64,000 bases of DNA, taken from an uncultured Bacillota bacterium (lineage in GTDB: Bacteria > Bacillota_I > Bacilli_A > RFN20 > CAG-288). The notes beneath the pieces were generated by a model. It was not told where the DNA came from, ran no database searches, and saw only the letters and a program-made list of their open reading frames with translations. This document shows, piece by piece, positions 34,890 through 58,236 of this stretch; the stretch's first letter is position 1, and each line of letters begins with the position of its first letter. The translations under genes were made by a program, and so were the position numbers. The DNA lies in assembly GCA_949284445.1 (NCBI GenBank), contig CASDVP010000006.1:48651-112650 (forward strand), written 5' to 3'.

Positions 34890-34894
34890 CGAAG

Positions 34895-35641: not shown

Positions 35642-35643
35642 TT

Positions 35644-38600: not shown

Positions 38601-39111
38601 TAGCGCTTCTGGCGAACAATTAGAACAGATCACTAAGAACATCGACACTTTCACCAGATACACGACTTATATCGTCTTCGATCTCTTCGTCTATCGTGGA
38701 ACTGATAGCGTCGCTCAACCGATCTCTTTAGGACGTTCATTCAGATCGCAATCCGGTGGTGAGACTCAGACTCCTTTCTATATCGCTATCTTAGCTTCCT
38801 TCTCAGCTTTATGCCGTGCTAAAAATAGCAAGGATAACAACACCTTAAGACTAGTCATCTTTGATGAAGCTTTCTCAAAAATGGATGCTGCTAGAATCAA
38901 AGAATCCGCTAACCTTTTAAGAAGCTTTGGCTTACAGGCTATCATCTCTTCACCTAGTGAAAAACTAGCTGAATTAGTCAGTTATGTAGATCTGATCTTA
39001 GTCGCTAACCACAATGATAAACGTAAGCATTCAAGCGTCGATGTATATGAAGAAAAGAAGAAAAAGGTGAGCGTTGAAGAATTCGTCGAAAATAAAGCTC
39101 TTAAAGAATGA
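35644..39111 (+). CDS. jetC: Wadjet JetC / MksB SMC-family ATPase
   Basis: LINWHYF, Walker A TGPNGTGKSTIIDALQ, long coiled coils, signature SGGETQTPFY, Walker B/D-loop LVIFDEAFSKMD. Confidence 0.92.
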   Translation: MKNLVKLRLINWHYFTNTTCDIKNITYLTGPNGTGKSTIIDALQILILGSTRPENFNKAANEKARSGRTLISYLRGQTGVTGDGQVINLRKGNFTSYIAIEIYDDVEDKTFTLGVVFDVDSSDQIDKHYFYIASPFLENNFTNSEMEKDSNRIKPLQYKELSSYVRSNFKPSQYRFFDTDTDYKGFIKEAYGNLPDKYFELFKKAVSFAPISDISSFITEYICDVDKQINIEPMQKNIEQYKILELEAKRLRNKVDSLNKISEVFNSYQTHQRYLNTLNYVNTRVSYEEAKKRLDDFMEKLKKDNDRLSYISNQLLVCDSQIAELNADLESYNAKKVQSKNYSLTERLSMKKDTITSKITSIQMSASQVMTKLNNYVHDYQSACQNFYTYYSQFDSSRLGKNIKGAFDELLELCQDITSEATSLIQSIDDDSVDFEAIKVFRNDMDLLRNQAISLRQQLNNELYVISEELQQLQSDLSAVNSGRKPFDKLGPNYMAIKSSLERALQDRHSDAYVNIYCDLVDVNDPEWTLALEAVLFNQKFNFFVNPKYYEEANRILKELADEYNYYRVSLVDTDRLLANHITANEDSIAELITTSDSGARAYTDYLLGRIKKCRSFEEARASGSGLLSDCTGYRGYATWYLNKAHARVFYLGTQVSSSTKAISAKDYQDMQAKYNLFTEALNKLQNLLALPVMSEAECQSYQADIDKTSEIRNLQNDLSNVDSQMHDAALGDMNELDKKISAIKEDIASIEKERADLLTERGSLLNEVNRLNSEEIPLATSSVENFRASLNNFDPQLSNHDYEPYFNMLIDEQHMTLAQIRNAATKEYIQTSNKQKYERENLIRLRSDYCAAHKLGYATTNLDTNDEFDAELKNISTVMLPDYEEKIKKAHDDSIKEFKDDFVYKLRTSIETVYQQIEELNQALVDSHFGRDTYQFKVSPSKDYLEYYNMIMDPLLLKAGDAESLFMEKYRSTMDDLFNLISSSTSASGEQLEQITKNIDTFTRYTTYIVFDLFVYRGTDSVAQPISLGRSFRSQSGGETQTPFYIAILASFSALCRAKNSKDNNTLRLVIFDEAFSKMDAARIKESANLLRSFGLQAIISSPSEKLAELVSYVDLILVANHNDKRKHSSVDVYEEKKKKVSVEEFVENKALKE

Positions 39112-39460: not shown

Positions 39461-39892
39461 ATGAAGTCTATTTTAGAGCGCTTTAAAAAATGTAATGTTG
39501 GCGCTTACTTCGTCTTTTTTACGATGCTTTGCTCACTGCTCTCTTTCATCTTTTGTCTCGTCGGTATCGCTTCCGGTTATCAATCTTGGCTCACCTTTGT
39601 CTGCTTTATTTTGATTTTAGTCGCTGATGTTGTTTTGTTCGTTTTTAACAAGCTAGAATTCGCACCAGCTGTCAACGCTATTCTTTCAGCTTTAGGAATC
39701 GGATTCTTCATCTATGCTGGCTATAACTATGTGGCTACCGTTATCACTGGTATCGATATTGAAAATTTTTCAGCTGATTTTATCCTTTCTTGTGTCTTTT
39801 ATGTTTTGGCTTATGCTTCTAGTGTCGCTTCTATCTTTTTACCATTATATAAGAAGACTCAAACTGAAAGCACAGATAAGGTAACTGAATAG
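39461..39892 (+). CDS. uncharacterised 4-TM protein preceding GH3 (paralogue of 51207..51674)
   Basis: SD AGGAGG; four TM helices; shared motifs with the 155-aa paralogue. Confidence 0.8.
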   Translation: MKSILERFKKCNVGAYFVFFTMLCSLLSFIFCLVGIASGYQSWLTFVCFILILVADVVLFVFNKLEFAPAVNAILSALGIGFFIYAGYNYVATVITGIDIENFSADFILSCVFYVLAYASSVASIFLPLYKKTQTESTDKVTE

Positions 39893-39905: not shown

Positions 39906-42900
39906 ATGAGAAAAAGATATACTGCTAGTAAAATTTGTTTGACCGCTTTTTCATCTCTTTTAGGCATCTCTGTTTTAGCAACTGTCATCTGCAATGAAAA
40001 TGTCACGGCGATCAACACTGCTATAGGTACTTCCTCTTGGAAAAAGGTTCAAGTAGAAGAAAGCGATGAAAATACCGATACTGAGTATTACAAATCAGAT
40101 TATGAACATCTAGACGATGTGATCGCCGATACTGATAAACTTATCGAAGAGGAAATGGAAGAAGGCGCCGTTCTTATCAAGAACGAGAATAACGCACTCC
40201 CGTTAGCTCAGAATGCAAAAGTTACAACAGTTGGTTTGGCTTCAGCTGTTTCTAGTTTATCCTCATCTGGTTCTGTTGCCGGTTCCAGTGCTACTGGTCG
40301 TGAAGTCACTTTAAAGGCGGGCTTAGAGCATGCTGGTTTTACAGTCAATCCGACAGCTTGGGACTATTATAATGATGCGGATGTTCAATCTACTTATGGC
40401 ACTGTTAGAAATGGTATGAGCGCTCCTGGACCATTGATCCAAAAAGTTGGTGAAGTTCCGTGGGATGTCGCTAATGCTGCTTTCGGTTCATCTATCAGCC
40501 AATACGGCGATGCTGCTATCATGAACATCACTCGCGTCTCTGGAGAAGGCAATAAAGATGTCAACCGTTCTGGTACTACTAATACTCCTAATGGTGATGC
40601 TTTGACTTTATCTAATGAAGAGATGGGTGTTTTAAGAGGCTTAAAGGCTTTGAAAGATGCTGGCACAGTCAAAAAGATCATCGTCTTATTAAACTGCACT
40701 GCTTCTATCGATTTAGCTTTCTTAAATGACGCCCAGTATGGAATCGATGCTTGCTTACAGATTCAAACTGTTGGAACCACTGGTTTTAACGGCGTCGGTG
40801 ACTTGTTAGCTGGAAATGCTAATCCTTCCGGAAAGAGCAACGATACTTTGTGGTATCATAACGATCAAAATCCGACTCTTACCAATCAATTAGGCTATGA
40901 GTTTTTAAATCCTGAAAATTTAGCTTTACACACTTTGACAAATGGTCTCGGTGGCTATGAGGCTCACTATGTCGTCTATCAAGAAGGCATTTATTTAGGA
41001 TATCGTTATACTGAGACTCGTTATTCTGATTATGTGACTAATAGAGCCAACACTGGTGACTTCGATTATGCAACTACTGTTTCAGTTCCTTTCGGATATG
41101 GCTTATCTTACACTGATTTCTCTTATTCTAATTTTAAAGTGAGCAAAACTAGTGATGGCGATTATCAAGTCTCTGTCGATGTTAAAAACGATGGTAAGGT
41201 AGCTGGTAAGGACGTAGTTGAAGTCTTCTTACAAAAGCCTTATACCGAATACAACGTTGAAAATGGTATCGAAGCTAGTGCAGTCGAATTAGTCGGATAT
41301 AAGAAGACACCTTTAATCGATCCAGGCGATACTGAAAACATCACATTGATCGTCGATGATAGACAATTCGCTTCTTATGATGCTAATACTTCTAAAACTT
41401 ATGTTTTAACTCCAGGCGATTATTATTTGGGCATCGGTAATGGCGCTCATGATGCTGTCAATAACATCTTAGCTGCTCAAGGTCATACCCCTTCTAATAC
41501 TTCTGATCGTATGGATGCTGAAGGTGATGGTGATTTAGCTACTGTCGCTTTGACTCAAAAGAATCTTGATAACACCACTTATTCAAAATCTGAAGCTACT
41601 GGTAAAGAGATCACCAATCTCTTCGATAATTCTGACTTGAATAAATATGCTGAAACCAAAGAGAAATCACCTGTCACTTATATAACTAGAAACAACTGGC
41701 AAGGAACTGTTGTCTTAGATTCTCTTGATAATAATGATAGTTATACTAAGGTGACTATGACTTCCAAGATGCTTGAGGATTTCCGAAAAGGTTATACCGA
41801 AAGCGAACTCAAGAAGGATAACGTCAAATATCCTACCTATGGTGCCGATAACGGATTATCATTAATCAGCTTAAGACAAGATGCTGATGGTAATGATATC
41901 CCTTACGATGCTGATATTTGGGATACTTTCTTAGATCAGCTCACTTGGGATGATACAGTCCACCTTCTCTCTAATGGTATGAGATCTACTGCTGGTATCG
42001 AAGGCGTTATCGGTAAACCGGCAACCCTCGATCACAACGGTCCTTTAGGTGTCACTGAATTATTCGCTACCAATGAAAATGGTTTAGCTTATCAAAAAGG
42101 TGAAGATCCAACAGCTAGACCTTCTACTTTCCCTGCCGCTGGTGTTTTAGCTTCCACCATGAATTCTGAATTGATCGATAGAGTCGGTAAGATGTATGGT
42201 GAAAATTGCCTCTGGGCTGGTTATAAAGGAATTTATGGACCAGCTATGAATACACACCGTTCTCAATATTCTTCTCGTAATGCTGAATACTATTCTGAAG
42301 ACGGTTTCTTAGCCGGTAAGACTGCTGCTAGTCAAGTCGTTGGAATTCAATCAAAAGGTATCTATGCTTACATCAAACACTTCGCCTTAAACGATCAAGA
42401 GACTAATCGTTATGGTCTTTCTACTTGGCTCAATGAACAAAGCTTCCGTGAAATCTATTTAGAAGCTTTCCAAATCGCTATTGAAGAGGGCGATGCTCAT
42501 GCTATGATGAGTTCTTATAACCGTGTCGGCACTTCTGTCTCTGCTGCTACTTCTAATCTTGTCACCGATTGGTTGCGTGGTGAAGAAGGCTTTGATGGCT
42601 TCGTTGTCACTGATATGTATATCGAACAAGCATACGGAACTTTAACTTTCTATACCGGCTTGTTAAAAATGCCTTATGCTGTTTATTGCGGTAATGATTT
42701 AGTCGATGGTGCTAATGTCGATCATCAATTCGATGATTATAGACAAGGCTATGGTGAATTAGCTTGGAGAATGAGAGAATCTGCTAAACGTATTCTTTAT
42801 ACCGTCTGTCATTCAGCTGCCATGAACGGTTGGGACTCTAACACTAGATTAGTCCATGTTCTCACTCCTTACCAGATCGCATTGATCGCTGTTGATAGTA

Positions 42901-42986
42901 CCTTAGGTGTATTAACTGCTGCTTCTTTAGGTTTCTTCGGATTCGAATATTACGTCAAGAACATCAAGAAAAAGAAAGAAGATTAA
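39906..42986 (+). CDS. membrane-anchored GH3 glycosidase with permuted domain order (C-domain, Fn3, TIM barrel)
   Basis: EGAVLIKNENNALPL, YQEGIYLGYRY, PFGYGLSYTDF, RNAEYYSED, KHFALND, MSSYN, VVTD nucleophile. Hydrophobic helices at both termini. Confidence 0.93.
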   Translation: MRKRYTASKICLTAFSSLLGISVLATVICNENVTAINTAIGTSSWKKVQVEESDENTDTEYYKSDYEHLDDVIADTDKLIEEEMEEGAVLIKNENNALPLAQNAKVTTVGLASAVSSLSSSGSVAGSSATGREVTLKAGLEHAGFTVNPTAWDYYNDADVQSTYGTVRNGMSAPGPLIQKVGEVPWDVANAAFGSSISQYGDAAIMNITRVSGEGNKDVNRSGTTNTPNGDALTLSNEEMGVLRGLKALKDAGTVKKIIVLLNCTASIDLAFLNDAQYGIDACLQIQTVGTTGFNGVGDLLAGNANPSGKSNDTLWYHNDQNPTLTNQLGYEFLNPENLALHTLTNGLGGYEAHYVVYQEGIYLGYRYTETRYSDYVTNRANTGDFDYATTVSVPFGYGLSYTDFSYSNFKVSKTSDGDYQVSVDVKNDGKVAGKDVVEVFLQKPYTEYNVENGIEASAVELVGYKKTPLIDPGDTENITLIVDDRQFASYDANTSKTYVLTPGDYYLGIGNGAHDAVNNILAAQGHTPSNTSDRMDAEGDGDLATVALTQKNLDNTTYSKSEATGKEITNLFDNSDLNKYAETKEKSPVTYITRNNWQGTVVLDSLDNNDSYTKVTMTSKMLEDFRKGYTESELKKDNVKYPTYGADNGLSLISLRQDADGNDIPYDADIWDTFLDQLTWDDTVHLLSNGMRSTAGIEGVIGKPATLDHNGPLGVTELFATNENGLAYQKGEDPTARPSTFPAAGVLASTMNSELIDRVGKMYGENCLWAGYKGIYGPAMNTHRSQYSSRNAEYYSEDGFLAGKTAASQVVGIQSKGIYAYIKHFALNDQETNRYGLSTWLNEQSFREIYLEAFQIAIEEGDAHAMMSSYNRVGTSVSAATSNLVTDWLRGEEGFDGFVVTDMYIEQAYGTLTFYTGLLKMPYAVYCGNDLVDGANVDHQFDDYRQGYGELAWRMRESAKRILYTVCHSAAMNGWDSNTRLVHVLTPYQIALIAVDSTLGVLTAASLGFFGFEYYVKNIKKKKED

Positions 42987-43037: not shown

Positions 43038-43444
43038 GTATTTTGTCAGATATTTTTTCTTATTCCTTGAGTTTTTTGTTGTATTTATTTGTTAATAATA
43101 TTGAAGAAAGAACCATTAAGACAATGTTTAAAAGAATACAACTGAGAATTCCTAAAAAAGTCAAATTAGCGATTGATAAATTGACAAAATGGTTTATGAC
43201 AGAACAAATGATTATTGCAAAGACTAAACTAGAAGACTGATTCTTTGACGCATACAAATAAAAAGCAAAAATAGGCACTGCATTTTTATATACAAGCGTA
43301 ATTATAACTACATTGTACAGACGACTCCTTTTCAGTGCCTAATTACAAAAACAAAGAATTATATTCAGCTCAATAATGTAAAAAACTATACAAGTTAAGA
43401 ATTATTCTTTTTTCGAAAAATAAAAGGGTGTATAATATTATCAT

Positions 43445-43458
43445 TGAAAGCGTTTACA
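43445..43458 (+). promoter_or_regulatory. cre (CcpA/LacI-family) site in the glgCDA leader
   Basis: TGAAAGCGTTTACA matches TGWAANCGNTNWCA; lies between -10 TATAAT and SD GGAGG. Confidence 0.75.
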
Positions 43459-43470
43459 CAGGAGGCTATC

Positions 43471-44577
43471 ATGAAAGAAGAGATGGTTGCCATGATTTTA
43501 GCCGGTGGTAGAGGTACCCGCCTTAAGTCGTTGACTAGCAAAATTGCTAAGCCAGCGGTTTTTTTTGGTGGCAAATATCGTATCATCGACTTCGTTTTGT
43601 CGAATGTCGCAAATTCCGGTATAAATTGTGTTGGTGTTGCTACACAATATGAATCGACTGTTTTAAACAATTATATCGGTACAGGTGCTAGTTGGGGTTT
43701 AAACGGCACAGGTGCTTTAACTTCAATCTTACCACCGAGAGAAACACCGGAAGGTGCTAGTTGGTATTTAGGAACTGCAGATGCCATCTATCAGAACATC
43801 GATTGGTTAGATAAGACGCATTGCGAATATGTGGTCATTCTTTCTGGTGATCATATTTATAAAATGGACTATTCGGAAATGCTCAAGTTCCATAAGAAGA
43901 ACGGTGCAGATGTCACTATTGCCTGCATCGATGTGCCGCTTGAAGAAGCATCTCGTTTCGGTATCATCGTCGCTGATAAAGAACATAAGATTTTAGAGTT
44001 CCAAGAGAAGCCAAAGAATCCGAAGTCTACTTTAGCTTCTATGGGTATTTATATCTTCACCTATAAATTGCTAAGAGATGCTCTTATCAAAGATCATAAT
44101 GCTGAAAAGACCGAGCACGATTTCGGTAAGAATATTCTTCCTTATTTATTAAGCAATGGAAAAAGTTTATATGCTTATCCTTTCTCTGGCTATTGGAAGG
44201 ATGTCGGAACCATTAAGTCATTGTGGGAATCCAATATGGACTTATTAGATTCTGACTGCTTATTACATCTTTTCTCAAAAGATTTTAAAATTTATTCAGC
44301 TGATACTTGCTCTCGTCCACAATATATTTCTCCTAGTGCTGAAGTCACAAATTCCATCATCAATCAAGGCGCTGTTGTAAAAGGTAAAGTGGACCACTCT
44401 ATAATTTCTAATGAAGCAGTTATCGAACCAGGTGCGGAGGTTGTCAATTCATTCATCATGCCTGGAGCTGTGATTAAAAAAGGCGTAAAAGTTAATTATG
44501 CTATCATCGGAAGTAAGACTATAGTTTCTAATGATAAGATAGGAAAAGACGGGGATATCATCCTCGTTAACGACTAG
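43471..44577 (+). CDS. glgC: glucose-1-phosphate adenylyltransferase
   Basis: ILAGGRGTRL...AKPAV.FGGKYRIIDF, GTADA, LSGDHIYKMDY, SMGIYIF, HDFGK, YWKDVGT. Start ATG 43471. Confidence 0.96.
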   Translation: MKEEMVAMILAGGRGTRLKSLTSKIAKPAVFFGGKYRIIDFVLSNVANSGINCVGVATQYESTVLNNYIGTGASWGLNGTGALTSILPPRETPEGASWYLGTADAIYQNIDWLDKTHCEYVVILSGDHIYKMDYSEMLKFHKKNGADVTIACIDVPLEEASRFGIIVADKEHKILEFQEKPKNPKSTLASMGIYIFTYKLLRDALIKDHNAEKTEHDFGKNILPYLLSNGKSLYAYPFSGYWKDVGTIKSLWESNMDLLDSDCLLHLFSKDFKIYSADTCSRPQYISPSAEVTNSIINQGAVVKGKVDHSIISNEAVIEPGAEVVNSFIMPGAVIKKGVKVNYAIIGSKTIVSNDKIGKDGDIILVND

Positions 44578-44591
44578 GGAGGTAAACTACA

Positions 44592-47632: not shown

Positions 47633-49558
47633 TTAAGCTAAGTTAGAATTTCTTTCCTCAGCAGCTGCTTCTCTTAATTTTAAGAATTCACGTTCGGTTT
47701 CATCATCGAAAGCAGTATTCATCTTTGGCTCTTCTTTAGGCTTCTTCTGCTCAGCTTCAGTTTTCTTTCTTTCAGCTTCAGCTTTCTTATTAGCACGATC
47801 AGTTTCGTACTTCTGTAATTCATCTTCAAAGACTAATTCTACTAACTTAGTAGGTTTACCGGCATCTTTGAGTTGATGATACTTTGCATTGTTCTTCTCA
47901 ACATGTCTACGTAAGTTTTCGATTTCTTCTTGATGGACTTGTTCTTCAGCCTCAGCTTGTTCTTGTTCGAGTCTAATTTCAGGATCAACCCATTCAGCAC
48001 CTTTTCTAATAGCGAGCTCTTTTTGGTCGCTAGTGATTGCTTGCTTATCTAATTTCGAGAAGCGCTCAACACCCATAAATAAGAAGATTAGACCGATCAA
48101 TAAGTAGCAGATAGATTCACCGCCGAAATAGATGAAGGTATTGGCAATTCTCCAGGTTTCAACGTTAGAAGAAATAGCAGGATTATTATTAATAAGGTTG
48201 ATAATAGCATTAGCGATACCAGGCATAGCAATCATGATAGAACCATAAACAGCCATTGAGAAACCATCAGTTCTGACACCATAGATAGCTTCTTGATGCT
48301 CTAAGACATCTGATAATAAAGCCATAGAGATATACATAGCAGGAACAGTACCGATAGATTTTAAGCAGAAAGCGGTGATAGAAATACCCCAAACAGCTGA
48401 AGTATTGTCGGCTAAAGGTAAGACTAAGAATCCTAAGCACCCCATTATGAAGGCTAAGAAACCACCGACTTTAATGCAGTTTGCTTTACCGAATTTTCTA
48501 GCTAATGGCCAAATGACTAACATACCTAAAGCAGTAGGAATAGCACCTACAGTATTGATAGTTCCAGCTAATTTGGTTTGGTTAGCACCTAAGAAAGCTT
48601 GGGAGAACCAAGTAGCATCATTATTTTTCAACATACCACCTAATTGATAGAGGAAGTAGAAGATGATAATCATCCACCAGAATTTATCACGTGTACAGAT
48701 CTTAATCTGTTGACTCATAGGAACCTTTTTGGTTTCTAATGCAACATTGTCAGAAGAGTTAGCAATCTTTAATTTTAGTTTTTCCTCAGTGATTCTTTCT
48801 CTAGTGAAATAATATTCTAATAAACAACCGATTACTTGAACACCGATTAAGATAGCCATTAAGATGACCCATTTGCTGTTTGCAGCACTTCTCGCAGCTT
48901 CATCAGCGAGTTGACCAGTTTCTGCACCAGCAGGGAGCAATCCTAAAGCATCAATAAAGAATGGTGCAACCATACCTGCAGCTCCAGACGCAACAATTTG
49001 AGCAGCATTTGAAGCAGTAGCTAATAAGGATCTCTTAGATCTATCACGTGTGGAAAGGTTGACTAAAGCAGAGTGAGATGTGTAATAGAACGGATAAGCT
49101 ACAGCGAAGTATAGGTTATAACCTAAAGCGATAAATACCAATGTTAACCAATTTGGATCTTGAGCTGTGGCTCCTTTAGGAAATGGAACTAAGAAGAGGA
49201 TTAAGAGAGCAATAGCCATTAATGGCATACCGATTAGAATGAATGGACGAGCTTTACCAGCGATTGATGGCTTTCTTTCGAATAATCTACCGACTAGTAA
49301 ATTACCAATGACGATGATGATGGCAGAAACTAATGGTAATAACCATGTGAATGTATAAGCCCATTCACCTAAACCTAAAACATTACGCCAATACTGACTT
49401 AAATAAGTGTTGACAACACTATTTGCAATAAGGGCGAATGCTGGACCGACTAAGTAGCCAAATGCAGCTTCTGGAACGAGTTTTACATTGGCAGACTTAA
49501 TCTTTGTAGAGAGCATAGGAGTTTCAAAGAAACTTTTTTTTGCGTCTGTTGTTTCCAT
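47633..49558 (-). CDS. GPH-family (MelB/UidB-like) MFS sugar:cation symporter with charged C-terminal extension
   Basis: About 12 TM helices, GKARPFIL, LVNLSTRD...RS, LLSDVLEHQE..YG.R.DG. Confidence 0.88.
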   Translation of the reverse strand: METTDAKKSFFETPMLSTKIKSANVKLVPEAAFGYLVGPAFALIANSVVNTYLSQYWRNVLGLGEWAYTFTWLLPLVSAIIIVIGNLLVGRLFERKPSIAGKARPFILIGMPLMAIALLILFLVPFPKGATAQDPNWLTLVFIALGYNLYFAVAYPFYYTSHSALVNLSTRDRSKRSLLATASNAAQIVASGAAGMVAPFFIDALGLLPAGAETGQLADEAARSAANSKWVILMAILIGVQVIGCLLEYYFTRERITEEKLKLKIANSSDNVALETKKVPMSQQIKICTRDKFWWMIIIFYFLYQLGGMLKNNDATWFSQAFLGANQTKLAGTINTVGAIPTALGMLVIWPLARKFGKANCIKVGGFLAFIMGCLGFLVLPLADNTSAVWGISITAFCLKSIGTVPAMYISMALLSDVLEHQEAIYGVRTDGFSMAVYGSIMIAMPGIANAIINLINNNPAISSNVETWRIANTFIYFGGESICYLLIGLIFLFMGVERFSKLDKQAITSDQKELAIRKGAEWVDPEIRLEQEQAEAEEQVHQEEIENLRRHVEKNNAKYHQLKDAGKPTKLVELVFEDELQKYETDRANKKAEAERKKTEAEQKKPKEEPKMNTAFDDETEREFLKLREAAAEERNSNLA

Positions 49559-49968: not shown

Positions 49969-51210
49969 ATGGACGAACAAGCTACAATCAAGCCTGAACC
50001 TAAAAAATCGCGTTTTAAGGCTTTGAAAGTTGTTTTGGCTGTCTTTTTACCGCTATTTTTTGTCATTTCAGTTGCTGTCGCTGTTTTATATGGCGGGGAA
50101 CTGATTGAAGAACCAACGGTAGAGTACGGCACTAAGGGACTAATCCGTTTAGAATCACCAAATTATCAACAATCATATTTCGTTGGTGATAAATTTTCTT
50201 TTGATAAAGATAAGAATCAGGTCTGGTTGGTCGCTAGAGATCCATCATTAGAGAATATCGTTAATAATACCGATATGCCTGGTGATGAGTATGGTTTCGT
50301 CATTCGCAAATTCTATAGTGAAGACGGAGTTTTGACCGCTAAAGAAGACATTGAAGCTAATGCATCTATCAAATCTATTTATGAAAAAGAAGAGGATTTG
50401 GCTTCTAAAAAAGAAGAAGCTACTTCTGAAAGCACTGCTGAAGAAGGAGCCACTGATGATGAAACCGCTTCTGATGAAAGCACAACAGAAGAAGTTAAAA
50501 AGTATTATTATGTCGATTCAGAATTCTATTTGAATGCTGAAGACATAACAATGGCTCCTAAAACCACTATTTGCTTAGCTAGTAAAAGATATCAAGATTT
50601 GACTCTTGAATTAGATACTGATGTTATCGATGGTTATATCGATGAGACTAAGTTATCTAATTCTGTCACTATTGAAGCTGAAAACTCTGATGTCTATCAA
50701 GATGATGTCTTGTTAACCAGAGAGCAATTGCAAACATTGCCAGATGGCAATAAACCTTTTTTGTCTAATTATGGTACTTCTACTGATGGTAAATCTTGTA
50801 GCGGTGGTGCTTGTTTAAGAAGCTTCAATAAAAATAATATGGCTGTTGATTTTGAGATCGTATCTTCTCAATCAATAACTGTTGAGTTGACTACATTGAT
50901 TTGCTTAAGACCTGATGCAGATTCTTTCACTAATTATTTTAAAGTTTCATTAAATGGTCAAGATATCAATGCTTTTGAAGGCATTGAAGTTCCTGAAGGA
51001 AGTGGTTACTATACACCTTATACAATGCCATCTGTTCAAATTGAATTGCAAAAAGGCATCAATCATTTAGTCTTTTCAAGTGGTTCACACGTTGGGCTTT
51101 CAGCTTCTCCTTGTAATTTAGATGCTATTAAGATTTCTACTCTTGATGAAGAACTTAAGGTCATCGGCGATAGCAATGCTATTGTCCTTAACGAGGAGGC
51201 AGGATTATGA
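49969..51210 (+). CDS. N-terminally anchored membrane protein with C-terminal CBM6/CBM35-like beta-sandwich
   Basis: Single N-terminal TM, acidic linker, then TIEAEN...SGGACL...VSLNG...IELQKGINHLVF...CNLDAIKI pattern. Confidence 0.65.
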   Translation: MDEQATIKPEPKKSRFKALKVVLAVFLPLFFVISVAVAVLYGGELIEEPTVEYGTKGLIRLESPNYQQSYFVGDKFSFDKDKNQVWLVARDPSLENIVNNTDMPGDEYGFVIRKFYSEDGVLTAKEDIEANASIKSIYEKEEDLASKKEEATSESTAEEGATDDETASDESTTEEVKKYYYVDSEFYLNAEDITMAPKTTICLASKRYQDLTLELDTDVIDGYIDETKLSNSVTIEAENSDVYQDDVLLTREQLQTLPDGNKPFLSNYGTSTDGKSCSGGACLRSFNKNNMAVDFEIVSSQSITVELTTLICLRPDADSFTNYFKVSLNGQDINAFEGIEVPEGSGYYTPYTMPSVQIELQKGINHLVFSSGSHVGLSASPCNLDAIKISTLDEELKVIGDSNAIVLNEEAGL

Positions 51211-51674
51211 GAGAACGAAAAATCAATTGGGTCAATAGAGCTTTTGGCTATTTAGCAGTTGCTACTACTGTTGCACAAGCTTGGATTTATACCTATGTGC
51301 CTAATGAACTGTTTAATTTACAAGTCTGTCTTTTATCTATTTTAGGTGTCGGTCTTTTCTGTGTTTTGATGTTATTTAAGAAGACTGCAGTTTTAGCTCC
51401 GATTGCCTTGATGTGTTGTGATTTTTTATGCGTTTGCGCATTTGCTAAAGCTGATGGTGTGATCGACTACTTTTCTACTGCCTTTTTCAGTGGCTTTTCC
51501 TTCCAAGCTTTCTTTAATTTAGACACCTTTGTTTGGCTCACGCTTTTACTATTTATCATCTCCTTTATTTTCGCATCTGTCGCTATGTATATTCCTCTTT
51601 TCAGAAAAAGTAAAGAAGAGAAGAATCATATGGCTAAAAAGACTGAATTAACTACTGGAGGAAATGCCAAATGA
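51207..51674 (+). CDS. uncharacterised 4-TM protein preceding GH3 (paralogue of 39461..39892)
   Basis: ATGA-coupled to both neighbours; four TM helices. Confidence 0.8.
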   Translation: MRERKINWVNRAFGYLAVATTVAQAWIYTYVPNELFNLQVCLLSILGVGLFCVLMLFKKTAVLAPIALMCCDFLCVCAFAKADGVIDYFSTAFFSGFSFQAFFNLDTFVWLTLLLFIISFIFASVAMYIPLFRKSKEEKNHMAKKTELTTGGNAK

Positions 51675-54600
51675 AAAGAAAAACAGCTTTAAGAATATCT
51701 AAGATTAGTTTTCATGTCACATTTGTTCTTTTCGCATTAGCTGCTACTGCTAGCCCGATGCTATTAGATTATTCGGGTATGATCAACACCGTATTTAATA
51801 TTCAAACTTCTACTGGTAGCGGTTCTGACGGAAACACCTATTTCGATACTGAATTTGAAACGATGGATGAAGTTAAGGAAGCTAGTAAACAAATCATTGA
51901 TGAAACCTTAAAAGAAGGCGCTGTCTTATTAAAGAATGATAACGAGGCTTTACCTTTAGCTAGTGAAGATACTGTCAATCTTTATGGCGCTGCTTCCTAC
52001 TGGTCAGTTGTCACTGGTATGGGTTCTTCAAGTTTTAAAGTTAATGGTGATCAGGACCCATTCGCCGATATCGTCACGTTAGAATCCGGCTTGACCAGTG
52101 CTGGTTTAAAAGTCAATGAAGATTTGAACACTTGGTATAAAGATAACGGTCTTAATTATTTAGGCGGCAGTGATCACTTCATCGGTTATGAAGACCAAGA
52201 AGTGCAAACAGTTGTTAAAGATGCTCCATGGAGCGCTCTTCCTTCCGCTAAAGAGAATGATGCTAAAGCTGGTATCATGGTTTTAGCAAGAAACTCTGGT
52301 GAAGCTGTCGACTTATATGCAGATATAACGATGGATGATGGTGCGACAAGAACTATTGTTAGCAAAAAAAATAATGGCAACCCTAACGGTTCTGTCGGAG
52401 ACGCTTTATCCCTCACTGATAATGAAAAAGATGTTCTTGCAAACATGAAGAAAATGAAGGATGAAGGAAAATTAGACAAGATTATTGTCTTGATGAATTG
52501 CGCCAGTCCTTTCCAAAGCGCTTTTGTTGATCAAGAAGAATATGGTATCGATGCTGCAATTTGGGTCGGAACTCTTGGTACCAATGGTGCTAATGCAGTC
52601 GGCAAATTATTGACTGGTAAATATAACTTCTCTGGTAGAACTGCTGATACCTTCTTTGCTGATAACAAATACAATCCTGTTTACTACAATTTTGGTTCTT
52701 ATGAATATGGAAATTCAAGCGCTTTAAAGAGCAATTATTTCGCTACTTTAGGCGAACAGAACCATAAATTCTATGTCGCTTATCAGGAAGGTATTTATAA
52801 CGGTTACAAATATACTGAAACTCGTTATGAAGACGTCTTAACTAATCGCAATAATGCAGGAAGCTTTGATTATGAAGCTGCTGTTTCTTATCCTTTCGGC
52901 TATGGCTTGAGCTATTCTGAATTCTCCTATTCCAATTTCAAGGTCACTGAAAATACTGAAGAAGACACTTATACTTTGACTGTCGATGTCACTAATAATT
53001 CTAAAGTCGATGGCAAAGAAGTCGTTCAGGCTTATATCCAAAAGCCATATACTGCTAAAGATATCGAAAACGGTGTTGAAAAATCAGCTGTTGAATTAGC
53101 TGGCTTCACCAAAGTTGATGTCAAAGCAGGTGAAACTGTTCCTGCTACTATTGAAATTAAAGGAAAATACTTAGCTGCTTACGATGCTAATGGTGAAAAG
53201 ACTTATGTCATCGGTTCTAGTGATAAAGATGATGAATATCTGTTCACTGTTGCAAAAGACGCCCATGATGCTGAAAATAACTTCTTGCAATACAAGGCTG
53301 ATAAAGGCGTTGATGTCGATTTAGAAAATATCACCACCAATGATAAGCGCGGTGAAGGTGATAAAGAATTGGTTTGGGGTAAGCACATCGACTATAGTGC
53401 TACTAAATATTCCACAAACGAATATATCGAACAACAGAATGAGAATTTTGAAGCTAGATATGATGGAGAAGAAGCTAATTATGGCGTTTCTTCTATCACC
53501 AATCAATTCGATGATACTGATTATCAAAAGGTTGGTCTTTTCTCTGACAGCGAAGAATCTCAACCTTATATGTCTAGAAACAACTGGACTGGCACTTATG
53601 GCAAAGTCATTAAATTGACCGCTAGTGCTGATTTAGCTGCTGCTCAAGCTGTTCCTGCAGTTGAACAAGATAATATTTCTTATCCTACTTATGATGAAAT
53701 CGGCTTCTATGAAGGCGATGATATGTTCGATGAGATCAAACTCATCTACTTACGCGGTAAAGATTTCAACGATCCTGATTGGGATACTTTGCTCAATCGC
53801 ATCTCTTGGGAAGAAACCTGCTATATCTTACAAGATGCTCTCCGTTACACTCGCGGTATCGATTCGATCGCTGCTCCTATGACTTCTCAACAGAATGGTG
53901 CTATCTCACCTGTTCACTCTCGTAATGATGGCGCTATTCCGAGTCAAAACGCTTTCCGCGGTTTTGCAGAATTGAGAAACGATGGTGTCAATACCAAACC
54001 TACTATCTTTGCTAACAACGGCATCGTTGCTGCTACTTATAACGTCGATCTCATCAGAAGGATCGGTAAACAGACTGGTGAAGAAGCTATCTGGGCTGGT
54101 TATAACGGCATCTATGGCTTAGGTGTCAACATCCACAGAGGCTCTTACTGTGGTAGAACCTTCGAATATTATTCCGAAGATGGATTCTTGACTGGTGTTG
54201 CTGCTGGTTATGAAGCTGCTGGCTTACATGACATGGGCGTATTTGTTTTAGCTAAACACGCTGTTTTAAACGACCAAGAGACTCACAGAGCTGGTCTTAA
54301 TGTTTGGGCTAATGAACAATCCATCCGTGAGATCTACTGCCGTGCTCTTGAAGTCGCTATCGATTTAGACAGAGAATTAGCGTTTGATGAAAATGGTAAT
54401 AGAACTCATATGCCGATGTTAGGTGTTATGACTGGTATGAACCGTTTAGGCGCTGTTTGGACTGGTGGTCAAGGTTTCTTAAACACTGTTTTAAGGGCTG
54501 AATTCGGTATGACTAGTTATGCTATCTCCGACTATAACTCTTCTCGTCGTTATATGTCTCCTATCCAAGGTGTCTTATATGGTAATGATTTGCCTGACGG

Positions 54601-54925
54601 AAACACTGGTAGTTGGTCTGGTGGTAACGATTATGATGGTAACAGCGCTCAATTTGAGGATTATGCAACTGGTTATGGTAAGTTAGCTTGGGCGATGAGA
54701 GATTGTGTTAAGAATGTTCTTTATACAGTCGTCAACTCCAATGCTATGAACGGTATCACTGGAGATTCTTCTTTCACCACCATCACTCCTCTTTGGGAAA
54801 AATTAGTCCCAGTTGTCACTCGTGTTTTATTCACTTTAGTTGTTTGGTCTACGGTCATGTTCGGTGCTATCTACATCTATGATTGTGCAAAACAGATTCA
54901 GGAATCCTTGAGTTTGAGAAAATGA
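51671..54925 (+). CDS. membrane-anchored GH3 glycosidase with permuted domain order
   Basis: EGAVLLKNDNEALPL, YQEGIYNGYKY, PFGYGLSYSEF, GRTFEYYSED, KHAVLND, AISD nucleophile. TM helices at both termini. Confidence 0.93.
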   Translation: MKRKTALRISKISFHVTFVLFALAATASPMLLDYSGMINTVFNIQTSTGSGSDGNTYFDTEFETMDEVKEASKQIIDETLKEGAVLLKNDNEALPLASEDTVNLYGAASYWSVVTGMGSSSFKVNGDQDPFADIVTLESGLTSAGLKVNEDLNTWYKDNGLNYLGGSDHFIGYEDQEVQTVVKDAPWSALPSAKENDAKAGIMVLARNSGEAVDLYADITMDDGATRTIVSKKNNGNPNGSVGDALSLTDNEKDVLANMKKMKDEGKLDKIIVLMNCASPFQSAFVDQEEYGIDAAIWVGTLGTNGANAVGKLLTGKYNFSGRTADTFFADNKYNPVYYNFGSYEYGNSSALKSNYFATLGEQNHKFYVAYQEGIYNGYKYTETRYEDVLTNRNNAGSFDYEAAVSYPFGYGLSYSEFSYSNFKVTENTEEDTYTLTVDVTNNSKVDGKEVVQAYIQKPYTAKDIENGVEKSAVELAGFTKVDVKAGETVPATIEIKGKYLAAYDANGEKTYVIGSSDKDDEYLFTVAKDAHDAENNFLQYKADKGVDVDLENITTNDKRGEGDKELVWGKHIDYSATKYSTNEYIEQQNENFEARYDGEEANYGVSSITNQFDDTDYQKVGLFSDSEESQPYMSRNNWTGTYGKVIKLTASADLAAAQAVPAVEQDNISYPTYDEIGFYEGDDMFDEIKLIYLRGKDFNDPDWDTLLNRISWEETCYILQDALRYTRGIDSIAAPMTSQQNGAISPVHSRNDGAIPSQNAFRGFAELRNDGVNTKPTIFANNGIVAATYNVDLIRRIGKQTGEEAIWAGYNGIYGLGVNIHRGSYCGRTFEYYSEDGFLTGVAAGYEAAGLHDMGVFVLAKHAVLNDQETHRAGLNVWANEQSIREIYCRALEVAIDLDRELAFDENGNRTHMPMLGVMTGMNRLGAVWTGGQGFLNTVLRAEFGMTSYAISDYNSSRRYMSPIQGVLYGNDLPDGNTGSWSGGNDYDGNSAQFEDYATGYGKLAWAMRDCVKNVLYTVVNSNAMNGITGDSSFTTITPLWEKLVPVVTRVLFTLVVWSTVMFGAIYIYDCAKQIQESLSLRK

Positions 54926-54936
54926 GAGGTGATAAA

Positions 54937-57900
54937 ATGAAAAACAAGAAAAAAATTGTTGGCATCTCTCTTTTATCTTTGATGTTTATGTCACCTATTC
55001 TTTCTAGCTGTACTCAAGAATCATCATCCTCTGTCGCTGTGCATGAATGTGTCTTTTATCCAGTAGAGGCTGTCGCTTCTACTTGTAAGACACAAGGACA
55101 TAAAGCCTATGAGGAATGTCCGTATTGCCGCAAGAAGATGATCGATGGTCAAGTCGTGACTGATGAAGAAGTTTTATTGCCATTAGATCCTAAAAATCAC
55201 GATTCGAATTCCTTGACTACTCATCCAGGAACTCCAGCCACATGTTTGACCGATGGCACTAAAGAATATTCTTATTGTGCTGATTGCGGCTCTTATGTTA
55301 TCGATGGTGAAAACTATACTGAAGAAAATTATCAGGAAGCTTTAGTCATTCCTAAAGAAACTGCTGAACATGAGTTAGTTCATCATGATGAAGTAGCTTC
55401 GACTTGTATACCTGGTAAAAAAGCTTATGATCAATGTTCGGTCTGTCATAAATATTTTATTGATGGTGCTGAAGTTCAAGAAAGTGATTTGATCATCCCA
55501 GCATCTGGTGAACATAATTTTAATACTTATGGTGTCTGCGAGAATGGCTGTGGAACTTATAAATGGGATAGTCATGTGTTTGATACTTCTAACTCTGTTC
55601 CTCTAGTGCCTTCTTCTGGAGAAGGATGGGTTGATGCCGATAAAGATGAAAAAGCTGCAATGATCGCTTCCACCCATGCTAATAAAATGACATTCCATAC
55701 ACAGAGAAGTTCTACTGATGGCTGTACAGTTGTTTACAGAGACGAAGAAGCGATTGATATAACTCTTTCTAAAGGTGCGGCGAATCAATGCACTTTCACT
55801 AGATTTGCGGTCGGTGAAGGAAGTACTGCCTATACTGGTCAATTCTATTTGACATTTGAAATCACTATTGATCGTGATATGTTAGTCGATAGATTAGGCG
55901 CTATGATCACTGATTATGATGCTAATGTCAAAGCTGAAACTTTAGGTGAATATGATCAATCGAATCTTTTAGGCGCTGATAGTGGAAATAAAGGAAGTGT
56001 TGAGAAGAATCCAGAAAGAATTCTTAAAGCAAAAACCACTTATCGCTTCATCTATAAGATGGAAACTACTAACACCAGCCCTTCACCAGACATGGTCGAT
56101 AAACAAGAACAGATGGTACAAATCTTTATCGGCGGTGGGGATGCTACTTATACTTTAAGCAATCTTCATGTCATCACTCTTCCTGAAGCTGAAAAGACAG
56201 GTAAAGTCACTTCTTCATTGCTCTATTTTGGTGAAACTGATTTAGTTGAAAATGAGAAAGATATCAAAGTCACTGATTTGACATTAAATAAGACTTATTT
56301 GACAATGCAAGTCGGTGATGAAGAAACTTTAGTCGCTACTGTTTTACCTGATATTGCTACAGATAAAACTGTCACTTGGTCAAGTGATCATCCTGAAATT
56401 GTTGATGTTGATGACAATGGTAAATTGACAGCTAAAACTACTGGGACTGCGAAGATCACTGCTACTTGTGGTGGATTAACAGCCACTTGTGATGTTGAGG
56501 TCTTAGATATGGTTGTTCCGGTAACCGGAGTTGAATTAGATAAAGAGACTTTAGAATTAACCGCTGGCGATGATGCAAGTCAATTAGTTGCTACTATCAC
56601 TCCTGATAATGCTTCTAATAAAACTTTGACTTGGTCCAGCAGTGCGCCTGAAGTAGCTAGTGTTTCAGACACTGGTTTAGTGACTCCTTTAACTGAAGGT
56701 CAAACAACTATCACAGTTAAAACAAATGATGGCTTGTTTGAAGATACCTGTGTTGTCACTGTCAGTGCTCCGACTGAGAAACATTATTACACCTATTTAG
56801 AAGAAGATTTCTTTGATCCTGCTAATTGGGATGCTAATGGTGAAGGAGCTAGAGATGACTCTATCATCGATAGTGATTTCAAACTCTCATTCACTTCTAG
56901 CACTGCTAGTAGATTCGATTTATTCTATGGTCCTAATCATGCTAATTTTGCTGAAAATAGTGATAATATTGATGGTACTAAAAAAGATCAACAAGCTATT
57001 TTTGAACAGATTTACAATCAAACCTATTCATTTGATATGGATGTTGAAACTGATGGTGAAGTCAATTTGATGATCTTTGGTACTTCTGGTGCTAATGGTC
57101 CTACAAATACGAGTTCCGCCTCACTATATTTGCATATCAAATCTGATGGTAGTATGTCTTTAGATCAATCAGCACCTACCTCTAACAATGATTTCAAAGA
57201 TCATTTCACCTGTGCTGATACTGGTTTTAAATTAAACGAGACTAACAAGTTATCATTTAAAGTCAATCGTGTTGATATCGACACCTTGACTCTTCAAGTC
57301 TTTGTGAACGATAAACAGGTTAAATTCGAAGGTGACGATTGGACACAAGGAAGTCGTGGAACCTATTCTGTTGATGAAAATGGCACTTATACATCTACTT
57401 ACGTCAAAGATAGCGGATATGGTCCTCGCTTTGGTGTTTATCCTTCGGCTGACACCACTTTCAAGATTTCTTCTCTCGCCATTGATCCTGAACCTGAGCA
57501 AATCACTGAACCTGATCCAGAGCCTGTAGAAAAACATTATAATCTTTATAATGGAAAAGATTTCTTCGATCCAGCTAACTGGTATGGAACTACTCAAGAA
57601 CAAATCGCTCGTGATGATTCTATCATCGATGAAGATCATAATTTAAGTTTTACAGATGCGACTCCTAGCAGAACCGATTTCTTCTACTTTAAGGATGATG
57701 GATGCCATTTTGGTGACAAAAATGCTGATAATAAATGGAATGGTTACACTGATTATTATGGCATAACCTATACCTTCTCATTAGGCATCGAATCGACTGG
57801 TGCTTTCGAGATGACTGCTATCGCTAATAAGTCGTGGGTGACCCCTAGTACGACTGGTGGCTTCGGATTTGTTTATCACTTTGAAGATAATAAAATCACT

Positions 57901-58236
57901 TTAACTTGTCATCATAATAGTGATAACTATACTTTTACTGCTAATACTGATGCTTTTAAATATAATCAAGTCAACCAAATCTCTTTAAAAGTGACTAGAG
58001 TAGATTCGGACACATTAACCTTACAGTTGCTCGTCAATGATGCAGTTGTTGAATTCGATAAAAGTGGTGATTATCCTGGCAGTTCCTATTCTTTCACTAT
58101 GAGCGATGACTTTGTTTTGAGTTTTGATAAATATCTCGCTAACAACGGATATGGTCAACGCTTAGGAATCTTTCCTGATGCTGGTTCAGTAGTGACTATT
58201 TCTTCACTAGCTATCGATCCAGCACCGGCCAATTAA
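54937..58236 (+). CDS. large surface lipoprotein: Cys/His repeats, two Big_2 Ig domains, two tandem about 240-aa C-terminal domains
   Basis: Start ATG 54937 after GAGGTG; lipobox LSSC; Ig domains with TVTWSS..P motifs at 56260-56766. Confidence 0.88.
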   Translation: MKNKKKIVGISLLSLMFMSPILSSCTQESSSSVAVHECVFYPVEAVASTCKTQGHKAYEECPYCRKKMIDGQVVTDEEVLLPLDPKNHDSNSLTTHPGTPATCLTDGTKEYSYCADCGSYVIDGENYTEENYQEALVIPKETAEHELVHHDEVASTCIPGKKAYDQCSVCHKYFIDGAEVQESDLIIPASGEHNFNTYGVCENGCGTYKWDSHVFDTSNSVPLVPSSGEGWVDADKDEKAAMIASTHANKMTFHTQRSSTDGCTVVYRDEEAIDITLSKGAANQCTFTRFAVGEGSTAYTGQFYLTFEITIDRDMLVDRLGAMITDYDANVKAETLGEYDQSNLLGADSGNKGSVEKNPERILKAKTTYRFIYKMETTNTSPSPDMVDKQEQMVQIFIGGGDATYTLSNLHVITLPEAEKTGKVTSSLLYFGETDLVENEKDIKVTDLTLNKTYLTMQVGDEETLVATVLPDIATDKTVTWSSDHPEIVDVDDNGKLTAKTTGTAKITATCGGLTATCDVEVLDMVVPVTGVELDKETLELTAGDDASQLVATITPDNASNKTLTWSSSAPEVASVSDTGLVTPLTEGQTTITVKTNDGLFEDTCVVTVSAPTEKHYYTYLEEDFFDPANWDANGEGARDDSIIDSDFKLSFTSSTASRFDLFYGPNHANFAENSDNIDGTKKDQQAIFEQIYNQTYSFDMDVETDGEVNLMIFGTSGANGPTNTSSASLYLHIKSDGSMSLDQSAPTSNNDFKDHFTCADTGFKLNETNKLSFKVNRVDIDTLTLQVFVNDKQVKFEGDDWTQGSRGTYSVDENGTYTSTYVKDSGYGPRFGVYPSADTTFKISSLAIDPEPEQITEPDPEPVEKHYNLYNGKDFFDPANWYGTTQEQIARDDSIIDEDHNLSFTDATPSRTDFFYFKDDGCHFGDKNADNKWNGYTDYYGITYTFSLGIESTGAFEMTAIANKSWVTPSTTGGFGFVYHFEDNKITLTCHHNSDNYTFTANTDAFKYNQVNQISLKVTRVDSDTLTLQLLVNDAVVEFDKSGDYPGSSYSFTMSDDFVLSFDKYLANNGYGQRLGIFPDAGSVVTISSLAIDPAPAN
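55042..55554 (+). repeat. three Cys/His-rich protein repeats
   Basis: (A/S)TC-x2-3-G-x2-(A/E)Y-x2-CxxC-x4-IDG...H occurs three times: ASTCKTQGHKAYEECPYC, PATCLTDGTKEYSYCADC, ASTCIPGKKAYDQCSVC. Confidence 0.85.
56776..58233 (+). repeat. tandem duplicated domain in the lipoprotein
   Basis: Both copies begin EKHY...DFFDPANW...ARDDSIID...LSF and end YG.R.G.(Y/F)P......ISSLAIDP. Copy 1 is 56776-about 57495, copy 2 is 57529-58233. Confidence 0.9.

Follow-up and report, generated by a model that had tools for sequence, protein, structure and literature searches.

Family GH3 glycoside hydrolases hold the sugar in subsite -1 with a conserved Asp that binds its O4 and O6 (D95 in HvExoI, D58 in TnBgl3B, D532 in GlyA1). 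In HvExoI the O-delta1 and O-delta2 atoms of Asp95 form hydrogen bonds of 2.5-2.7 Å with the C6-OH and C4-OH of glucose (PMC6527550). The NagZ-like GH3 enzyme SN243 is a beta-glucuronidase with a His333/Asp331 dyad, in which Arg136 binds the C6 carboxylate and the R136A substitution raises Km 282-fold (bioRxiv 10.1101/2022.04.25.489410); we found no other GH3 beta-glucuronidase in the literature. Here, we analyzed two GH3 genes, GH3-1 and GH3-2, in a stretch of 64,000 nucleotides from an uncultured Bacillota bacterium (contig CASDVP010000006.1, positions 48,651 to 112,650; hereafter the window). It had been proposed for this window that both proteins carry an Asn in place of the O4/O6-binding Asp and a new Arg shortly before it, a pair that would accommodate the C6 carboxylate of glucuronate (GlcA). 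The role of the Asp and the existence of SN243, on which this original prediction drew, are both documented in the papers cited above. We find that the Asn marks a whole clade of such proteins and we give a probability of roughly 55% to the reading that these Asn-type GH3s are cell-surface beta-glucuronidases with a -1 subsite adapted to the C6 carboxylate.

Two of the closest described systems share the domain order of the window proteins. GlyA1 (5K6L-5K6O) and PbBgl3 (5WUG/5WVP) are likewise built from an (alpha/beta)6 sandwich, a fibronectin type III (FnIII) domain and an (alpha/beta)8 barrel. GlyA1 is a soluble beta-glucosidase/xylosidase, which has Asp-532 and a Trp-710 that stacks on the glycon (PMC5104943). 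The closest barrel sequences are those of TnBgl3B from Thermotoga neapolitana (2X40) and of BglPcC1 (8IDZ), at 1e-62 to 1e-67, with which the window proteins share a shortened Bgl3B-type barrel start; both enzymes differ from them in being soluble glucosidases of normal domain order, with Asp58 in ADGPAG and a Trp after the nucleophile.

An Asn at the canonical Asp position

GH3-1 (39906..42986, + strand, 1026 aa) and GH3-2 (51671..54925, + strand, 1084 aa) are paralogues with 34% identity. By Pfam, both are circularly permuted, with the order GH3_C, Fn3-like, GH3 barrel (residues 89-366, 437-512 and 700-905 in GH3-1). GH3-1 matches PF00933, PF01915 and PF14310 at 5.5e-22, 2e-15 and 6e-08, which places it in GH3, and GH3-2 matches the same three families, with PF00933 at 26.7 bits slightly below the 27-bit cut-off. 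The GH2 domain of the classical beta-glucuronidases (GUS) was absent from both in Pfam searches, and the best GH3 match in NCBIfam was an alpha-L-arabinopyranosidase family, which scored 235 bits where 1300 are required, and there was no equivalog. The AlphaFold2 (AF2) model of GH3-1 has a mean predicted local distance difference test score (pLDDT) of 85.9 and a predicted TM-score (pTM) of 0.87. Foldseek matched this model best, across about 950 columns, to the permuted GH3s GlyA1 (5k6l-o) and PbBgl3 (5wug/5wvp), with E 9e-49 and TM 0.60/0.76 for 5k6o/5wvp, and the domain order is that of GlyA1. Hydropathy analysis revealed an N-terminal (7-25) and a C-terminal (991-1009) hydrophobic anchor in GH3-1 and similar anchors in GH3-2, the C-terminal segment being followed in both by a Lys-rich tail. 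Given hydrophobic segments at both ends, we predict that the catalytic body of each protein lies outside the cell and is anchored in the membrane.

The residues and coordinates named in the original prediction are exact. Asn711 of GH3-1 (42036-38) stands in for the canonical Asp within the motif D709-H710-N711-G-P-L-G (42030..42050, + strand; Asp709-His710-Asn711 at 42030-38, LDHNGPLG from 42027), while in GH3-2 the corresponding residue is Asn742 (53894-96, + strand) in SQQNGAIS. Three independent HMMER alignments, to 8idz, 2x40 (TnBgl3B D58) and 8j9f, placed Asn711 under the Asp of ADGPAG/TDGPHG, confirming the assignment to the Asp of DGPxG, and a BLASTP alignment of GH3-1 with GH3-2 paired it with Asn742. 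The preceding Arg693 (codon aga, 41982..41984, + strand) lies 18 residues before the Asn in GH3-1, and Arg725 (53843-45, + strand) lies 17 residues before it in GH3-2. The Lys-His pair and the nucleophile are intact in both proteins, as had been claimed (Lys824-His825 at 42375..42380 and Asp903 at 42612-14, + strand, in GH3-1; K862/H863 and D954 in GH3-2). D903, K824 and H825 align to TnBgl3B D242, K163 and H164 and are invariant in 122 sequences. The acid/base Glu214 (40545..40547, + strand) lies in RVSGEG, aligned with ISRISGEG of TnBgl3B (2x40); it is invariant among homologues and is supplied by the sandwich domain, as is usual for GH3. R791 and R835 are kept as well, and GH3-2 has E211, R829 and R873.

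The comparison with GlyA1 shows where the two proteins depart from a canonical enzyme. GlyA1 Arg-597, Lys-630, His-631, Arg-641 and Asp-709 map to R791, K824, H825, R835 and D903 of GH3-1, whereas Asn711, Arg693, a loop at about 726-739 after the Asn and the two membrane anchors set the window proteins apart. So does the residue after the nucleophile, which is Met904 in GH3-1 (Asp903-Met904, 42612..42617, + strand) and Tyr955 in GH3-2 in place of the stacking Trp expected in canonical GH3s. Since GlyA1 is permuted and keeps Asp-532, the Asn is not a by-product of the permutation.

The Asn is a clade signature, far beyond chance. It is kept in 122 of 122 sequences, that is in the 120 best database homologues (83-42% identity) and both window proteins, and is present in about 270 unique sequences overall. 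A broader search of 1.84 billion representatives returned 17,770 relatives; typing of the best 150 of these with the two window proteins gave 62 Asn-type sequences and 88 Asp-type ones, the latter being sister paralogues of identical architecture that invariantly have Asp in the column of residue 711 (GH3-1 numbering is used throughout). Length, domain order and both anchors (about 88% each) are common to the two types. The Asn-type GH3s form a large, uncharacterized clade of gut Bacillota that has every defining feature of GH3 except the canonical Asp and lies outside the SN243/NagZ-like group. The genomes with the nearest relatives belong to uncultured Bacilli/RF39, e.g. Candidatus Onthovivens.

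Further positions separate the types, namely 693, 709, 770, 322 and 934 besides 711 (N/D), together with the inserted loop at about 726-739. Column 693 is Arg or His in 95 of the 98 Asn-type genes found in the 166 loci from which our typing and GUS-pairing counts were drawn (about 93% in the Asn-type overall) and in 57 of the 62 Asn-type representatives (58 with one Gln). In the Asp-types of the same loci it is Tyr, Phe, Trp or a small residue, and Arg/His in only 3, but 23 of the 88 Asp-type representatives (about 26%) also have a basic residue there. A basic residue is near-obligate alongside the Asn and is not exclusive to the Asn-types, and the predicted new Arg is a His in about one third of the clade. 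Position 709 is Asp or Glu in 94% of the Asn-types and variable in the Asp-types, and the post-nucleophile residue of the Asn-types is Met, Tyr or Phe versus the Trp of the solved glucosidases TnBgl3B and GlyA1.

The Asn-types fall into two subtypes, R...D-H-N-G-P...D-M-[YW], to which GH3-1 belongs (R693...DHNGP...D903-M904-Y905), and H...D-E-N-G-P...D-[YF]-S. Among 268 sequences, the 693/710 pairs were (R,H) in 152, (H,E) in 47 and (Q,Q) in 10. This covariation suggests that residue 693 is near the Asn strand, but it may also be purely phylogenetic. In a neighbor-joining tree of the 152 representatives, the Arg/Asn sequences group into a single clade, inside which 4 Asp/Glu sequences fall, and the His/Asn sequences are scattered; we claim neither monophyly nor multiple origins from this tree.

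We then compared these positions with SN243 (7QE1/7QE2), whose numbering was rebuilt from the alignment as chain index + 30 and checked on K318, H319, R272, D331, H333 and D415. Arg136, the Arg in HRFVFRNV, is at the end of one strand, and ...LGIPSLFKS-N186-ARNH forms the next. Asn186 falls under the Asp of FAYDVLHG in Escherichia coli BglX (L168:3693-5990; MAFFT) and, in 9UL7, under the Asp of VSTDPRH (HMMER); 9UL7 is the closest solved relative of SN243 and is annotated as a beta-glucosidase. At the sequence level SN243 shows both changes, an Asn for the canonical Asp and a basic residue closing the barrel strand before it, and 9UL7 lacks the Asn. In contrast to the window proteins, SN243 has a KHFPGGG...DPH dyad inside the barrel and a normal domain order, and it lacks membrane anchors. 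The NagZ-like motif KH(F/I)PG(H/L/G)G-X6-D(S/T/P)H is not found in the window proteins (GH3-1 IKHFALNDQETNR, GH3-2 AKHAVLNDQETHR), whose acid/base Glu214 comes from another domain, and a phmmer search with GH3-1 did not reach SN243. As SN243 belongs to a different GH3 subfamily, the shared signature is parallel and not inherited. Profile and hhalign alignments to 5k6l/5wug and SN243 were unreliable across barrel strands one and two, and the proposed equivalence of Arg693 and SN243 Arg136 comes from motif and topology reasoning.

Gene neighborhoods of the Asn-type and Asp-type GH3s

In order to compare the two types in their genomic context, we used an Asn-type query to collect 80 loci of species-representative genomes and an Asp-type query to collect 80 control metagenome loci, and clustered the neighboring open reading frames (ORFs). 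The commonest neighbors of the Asn-types are a two-component pair, a 645-aa GH2, a glycoside-pentoside-hexuronide (GPH)/MFS_2 transporter, a protein of about 150 aa with four transmembrane segments (4-TM) and uxuA/uxuB. This GH2 is orthologous to the flavin mononucleotide (FMN)-binding GUS enzymes 8ges, 6mvh, 6mvg, 7kgz and 6mvf (E to 1e-227, 1e-236) and has no hydrophobic N-terminus, which indicates a cytoplasmic location. Of the Asn-type genes 33/90, versus 3/78 of the Asp-type genes, have a GUS-like GH2 gene within 3 kb (Fisher odds ratio 14.5, p 1e-7). When GUS genes are defined strictly, by the carboxylate-reading NxK motif GMNHKGL and an identity of 51% or more, the nearest GH3 of the family is Asn-type for 35 of 36 of them; the single exception adjoins an ambiguously aligned variant and none clearly pairs with an Asp-type, the GH2s close to Asp-types showing 24-29% identity and no NxK. 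These FMN-binding "no-loop" enzymes (6MVF, 6MVG, 6MVH, 7KGZ, 8GES) adjoin Asn-type GH3s in Faecalibacterium, Gemmiger, Roseburia, Eubacterium, Christensenellales and others. They differ from the window GH3s in their unrelated fold and family, in reading the carboxylate with NxK, in being cytoplasmic and in their absence from the window; the two enzymes presumably act on the same substrate class.

The transport and catabolic genes are distributed in the same way. A GPH transporter was found within 3 kb of 26/90 Asn-type and 7/78 Asp-type genes. A co-occurrence of Asn-type GH3s with uxu genes, envisaged in the original prediction, was indeed detected, uxu genes lying within 6 kb of 11/83 Asn-type versus 0/67 Asp-type genes, and uxuA, uxuB and uxaC were seen only beside Asn-types among the examined loci. 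For the 67 Asp-type genes of this 6-kb tally, GUS was counted 8 times and GPH 10 times. The signal transduction genes do not follow this pattern, since an AgrC-like histidine kinase with a LytTR regulator stands within 3 kb of 37/90 Asn-type and 32/78 Asp-type genes (about 41% each).

The 4-TM partners form one family by hhalign. They have about 145-155 aa and no Pfam or NCBIfam match, and are encoded immediately upstream of the GH3, frequently overlapping it (e.g. L081:7759-8235, L049:3591-4028; loci are cited by our L numbers). Such a gene is present within 700 bp upstream of 44/88 Asn-type genes (37/52 in the Arg subtype) versus 0/70 Asp-type genes, and its product may serve as anchor, assembly factor or small transporter. 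The typical gene order, histidine kinase-response regulator (HK-RR)-GUS-GH3-GPH, occurs in Faecalibacterium, Gemmiger, Roseburia and Eubacterium, and this unit is apparently the operon native to the FMN-binding GUS class; in an alternative arrangement the GH3 is divergent from 4-TM-GUS-GPH-uxuA-uxuB.

In the PDB, a secreted GH3 that is found repeatedly in the Asn-type loci matches SN243 best (7qe1, E 3.5e-58). These SN243-like genes, present in about 10-13 loci (e.g. L071:6421-8934, L044:19158-21512, L052:6166-8559), keep the equivalents of Arg136 and Asn186 and a KHFPGDG...ESH motif, and they probably encode additional GH3 glucuronidases. They are not enriched near Asn-types in the same tally (8/83 vs 2/67 Asp-type, p 0.19).

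Several individual loci were also observed. FMN-GUS orthologues lie 13-250 bp from an Asn-type GH3 at L060:7789-9903, L079:7658-9901, L041:7721-9691, L084:13370-15373 and others, usually accompanied by a GPH transporter and a LytTR two-component system. An Asp-type paralogue (L085:15196-18300) adjoins two GH16 genes (L085:18390-21633) and its own LytTR two-component system, which is consistent with a beta-glucan/glucoside role of the Asp-types. Two Actinomycetota, Olsenella sp. (L056) and Thermophilibacter provencensis (L065), carry a GUS/Asn-type GH3/GPH cassette with kdgK/eda nearby, and L065 also has uxuA/uxaC near it; both show a third variant, T-E-N-A-G, and the presence of the cassette in this phylum suggests horizontal transfer of the unit. 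Bacillota-type GH3 contigs in bins labelled Phocaeicola dorei (L035) and Escherichia coli (L037) are probably mis-binned.

GH3-1, GH3-2 and the glucuronate genes of the window

GH3-2 is part of an operon with overlapping stops and starts in the order 413-aa protein, small TM protein, GH3-2, Big_2 lipoprotein. The N-terminally anchored 413-aa protein (49969..51210, + strand) is encoded by its first gene, as the stop of this gene overlaps the start of the small TM gene. It has no match in Pfam, NCBIfam, PDB or the fetched loci, and by eye its C-terminal half resembles a beta-sandwich binding module. The small TM protein (sTM2; 51207..51674, + strand, 155 aa) scores 94% in hhalign against the 4-TM partner-family profile, and its stop overlaps the GH3-2 start. 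Directly after GH3-2 follows the gene of an 1100-aa lipoprotein with Big_2 (Ig-like) repeats (54937..58236, + strand; the listed ORF starts at 54883, the lipoprotein signal at 54937). Homologues of this protein were found in only two loci, L037 and L042; Pfam and PDB gave no placement, apart from a faint Pfam match to a hyaluronate-lyase N-terminal beta domain under the cut-off (E 2e-4).

Convergent with this operon, the minus strand encodes kdgK (58366-59391), eda (59420-60022), uxaC (60041-61462), uxuB, a short-chain dehydrogenase/reductase-type D-mannonate oxidoreductase (61474-62334), and uxuA (62334-63386), a complete route from glucuronate to pyruvate and glyceraldehyde 3-phosphate. Neither uxaA nor uxaB is present beside this set, which points specifically to the glucuronate branch. 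Between the two GH3 genes lies a 641-aa GPH-family (MFS_2) transporter gene (47633..49558, - strand). Its best NCBIfam matches, glycoside-pentoside-hexuronide symporter and glucuronide transporter, are both under the cut-off, and tblastn detected no similarity to the GPH cluster of the other loci. Neither a GH2 GUS nor a LytTR system was found in the 64-kb window (tblastn with a GUS query), and the GH3s would be the sole candidate source of glucuronate within it.

GH3-1 is preceded by a 143-aa 4-TM protein without Pfam family (39461..39892, + strand), a member of the Asn-type-specific partner family whose gene ends 13 nt before GH3-1. Further upstream we observed Wadjet type I jetA, jetB and jetC at 33417-39111 (PADLOC E 4e-83, 1.5e-63 and 5e-290); jetD does not follow jetC, there being only 350 bp up to the small TM gene. 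A CBM48/GH13 enzyme (27735-29873) lies upstream as well, and the glycogen genes glgC-glgD-glgA (43444-47116) follow directly downstream of GH3-1; both appear unrelated to it.

Substrate of the Asn-type GH3s

The conserved Asn with its basic companion, and the genes found beside it, suggest that this signature marks a GH3 lineage dedicated to the use of glucuronides and glucuronate; the contact of these residues with the carboxylate and the identity of the substrate we infer. The Asn variant adjoins genes of GUS and glucuronate catabolism across many gut bacteria and recurs in SN243, which makes the clade a good candidate for a second gut beta-glucuronidase family. The original idea that an Asp-to-Asn change plus a basic residue fits a C6 carboxylate is supported in part, and the same two sources, the Asn-type-specific GUS/GPH/uxu synteny and the Asn186/Arg136 pair, speak strongly and independently for it. 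In the proposed mechanism, the retaining GH3 machinery is kept, with nucleophile Asp903, acid/base Glu214, the Lys-His pair and Arg791/Arg835 for O2/O3, while the corner of subsite -1 that reads C4 and C6 would be rebuilt. The O4/O6-bridging Asp has given way to a neutral Asn, the strand before it has gained a cationic Arg (or His), two residues upstream of the Asn there is an Asp/Glu, and the stacking Trp is gone. Such a subsite would no longer repel a C6 carboxylate and would supply it with a cationic partner, and a beta-D-glucuronosyl residue, possibly 4-O-substituted, could be accepted. Freed glucuronate or shortened glucuronides would be imported by the GPH transporter, further cut in many relatives by the cytoplasmic GH2 GUS, and catabolized via UxaC-UxuB-UxuA-KdgK-Eda, encoded beside GH3-2.

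Several observations weigh against a beta-glucuronidase role. The text on SN243 (bioRxiv 10.1101/2022.04.25.489410) makes no mention of Asn186 and does not name it among the GlcA contacts. This Asn may act by charge removal instead of direct binding. The segment 691-720 of GH3-1 (41976-42065), which holds Arg693 and Asn711, has a pLDDT of 57-64 and is the least confident part of the modeled barrel, with values above 90 around it; either this is a mobile loop or the 20-sequence alignment was too shallow. In about one third of the clade, His693 comes with Glu710 (DENGP), an extra negative charge beside the Asn and a less evident fit for a carboxylate. The Arg-type clade is largely a single lineage and the synteny statistics ignore phylogeny, while the neighbors of GH3-1 itself, Wadjet jetABC and glgC-glgD-glgA, are uninformative. 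We found no paper on the Asn-type clade or on a GH3 adjoining FMN-GUS genes. Finally, a dedicated cytoplasmic GUS adjoins many Asn-type GH3s and the SN243-like secreted GH3 co-occurs with some of them, so that a third beta-glucuronidase would look redundant. With these enzymes present, the Asn-type GH3 could instead complement them by another activity on substrates that contain glucuronides.

One such activity, and the main rival reading, would be the trimming of glucuronides, in which the GH3 removes another non-reducing sugar while GlcA is held in subsite +1 by Arg/His693, and the product is imported by GPH and cut by GUS. The HK-RR/GUS/GH3/GPH operon, in which the GH3 is extracellular and the GUS has no signal, speaks for such non-redundant roles, and Arg693 sits in a column that is aromatic in Asp-types and which we take, from a gapless motif alignment, to be that of the +1-subsite platform Trp37/Trp68 of HjCel3A/AaBGL1. 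Nevertheless we consider trimming unlikely, as it leaves the invariant -1 Asn unexplained when GH3 xylosidases and glucosidases keep the Asp, as SN243 has the same Asp-to-Asn change with GlcA in -1, and as the window encodes the full GlcA pathway yet no GUS in 64 kb.

The -1 sugar could instead carry another anionic or modified group at C6 or C4 (6-O-sulfo, 6-phospho, galacturonate or 4-O-methyl), the link to the glucuronate genes then being indirect. Loss of an acidic and gain of a basic residue is a generic solution for anionic C6 substituents, and GH1 6-phospho-glycosidases offer an analogy for such an acidic-to-basic switch; the relocated Asp709 could also read a different C4 geometry. However, the neighboring catabolic genes are those of the GlcA branch (uxuB and uxuA present, uxaA and uxaB absent), no sulfatases were seen in the examined loci and the extracellular location speaks against phospho-sugars, which makes this alternative quite improbable. 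About as improbable is the view that the proteins are ordinary beta-glucosidases or xylosidases in which the Asn is tolerated and the synteny reflects general sugar-gene clustering. It agrees with the other catalytic and O2/O3-binding residues, which are canonical, and with the best PDB relatives, which are beta-glucosidases, but not with the absolute conservation of Asn versus Asp between sister paralogues, nor with the additional specificity positions and inserted loop that divide the types, nor with NxK GUS, uxu and the 4-TM partner being Asn-type-specific when the two-component system is equal in both types. A non-hydrolytic role as ligand-binding co-sensor of the adjacent LytTR two-component system, which the proximity of such genes to about 41% of both types would allow, is very improbable given the invariant nucleophile, acid/base and KH and the lack of a two-component system near the window copies.

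Glucuronides of drugs, hormones and bilirubin are reactivated by the beta-glucuronidase activity of the gut, which has been catalogued and targeted with inhibitors almost entirely via GH2 GUS. The wider proposal of a second, GH2-independent family of cell-surface beta-glucuronidases in Faecalibacterium, Roseburia, Gemmiger, Christensenellales and RF39, with its 4-TM partner and with an Asn/basic uronate code that arose convergently across GH3 subfamilies, we regard as tentative, at a little under even odds. If true, a large extracellular non-GH2 glucuronidase family would be encoded beside the FMN-GUS genes of abundant butyrate producers, gene-based "GUSome" estimates would change and inhibitor-resistant activity could be explained. 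The physiological operon of the FMN-binding GUS would also be identified, comprising a sensor kinase, surface GH3, GPH importer, cytoplasmic GUS and the Uxu pathway. For enzymology, a simple and testable switch of specificity, shared by two GH3 subfamilies that are far apart, would allow better annotation of thousands of "beta-glucosidase" genes.

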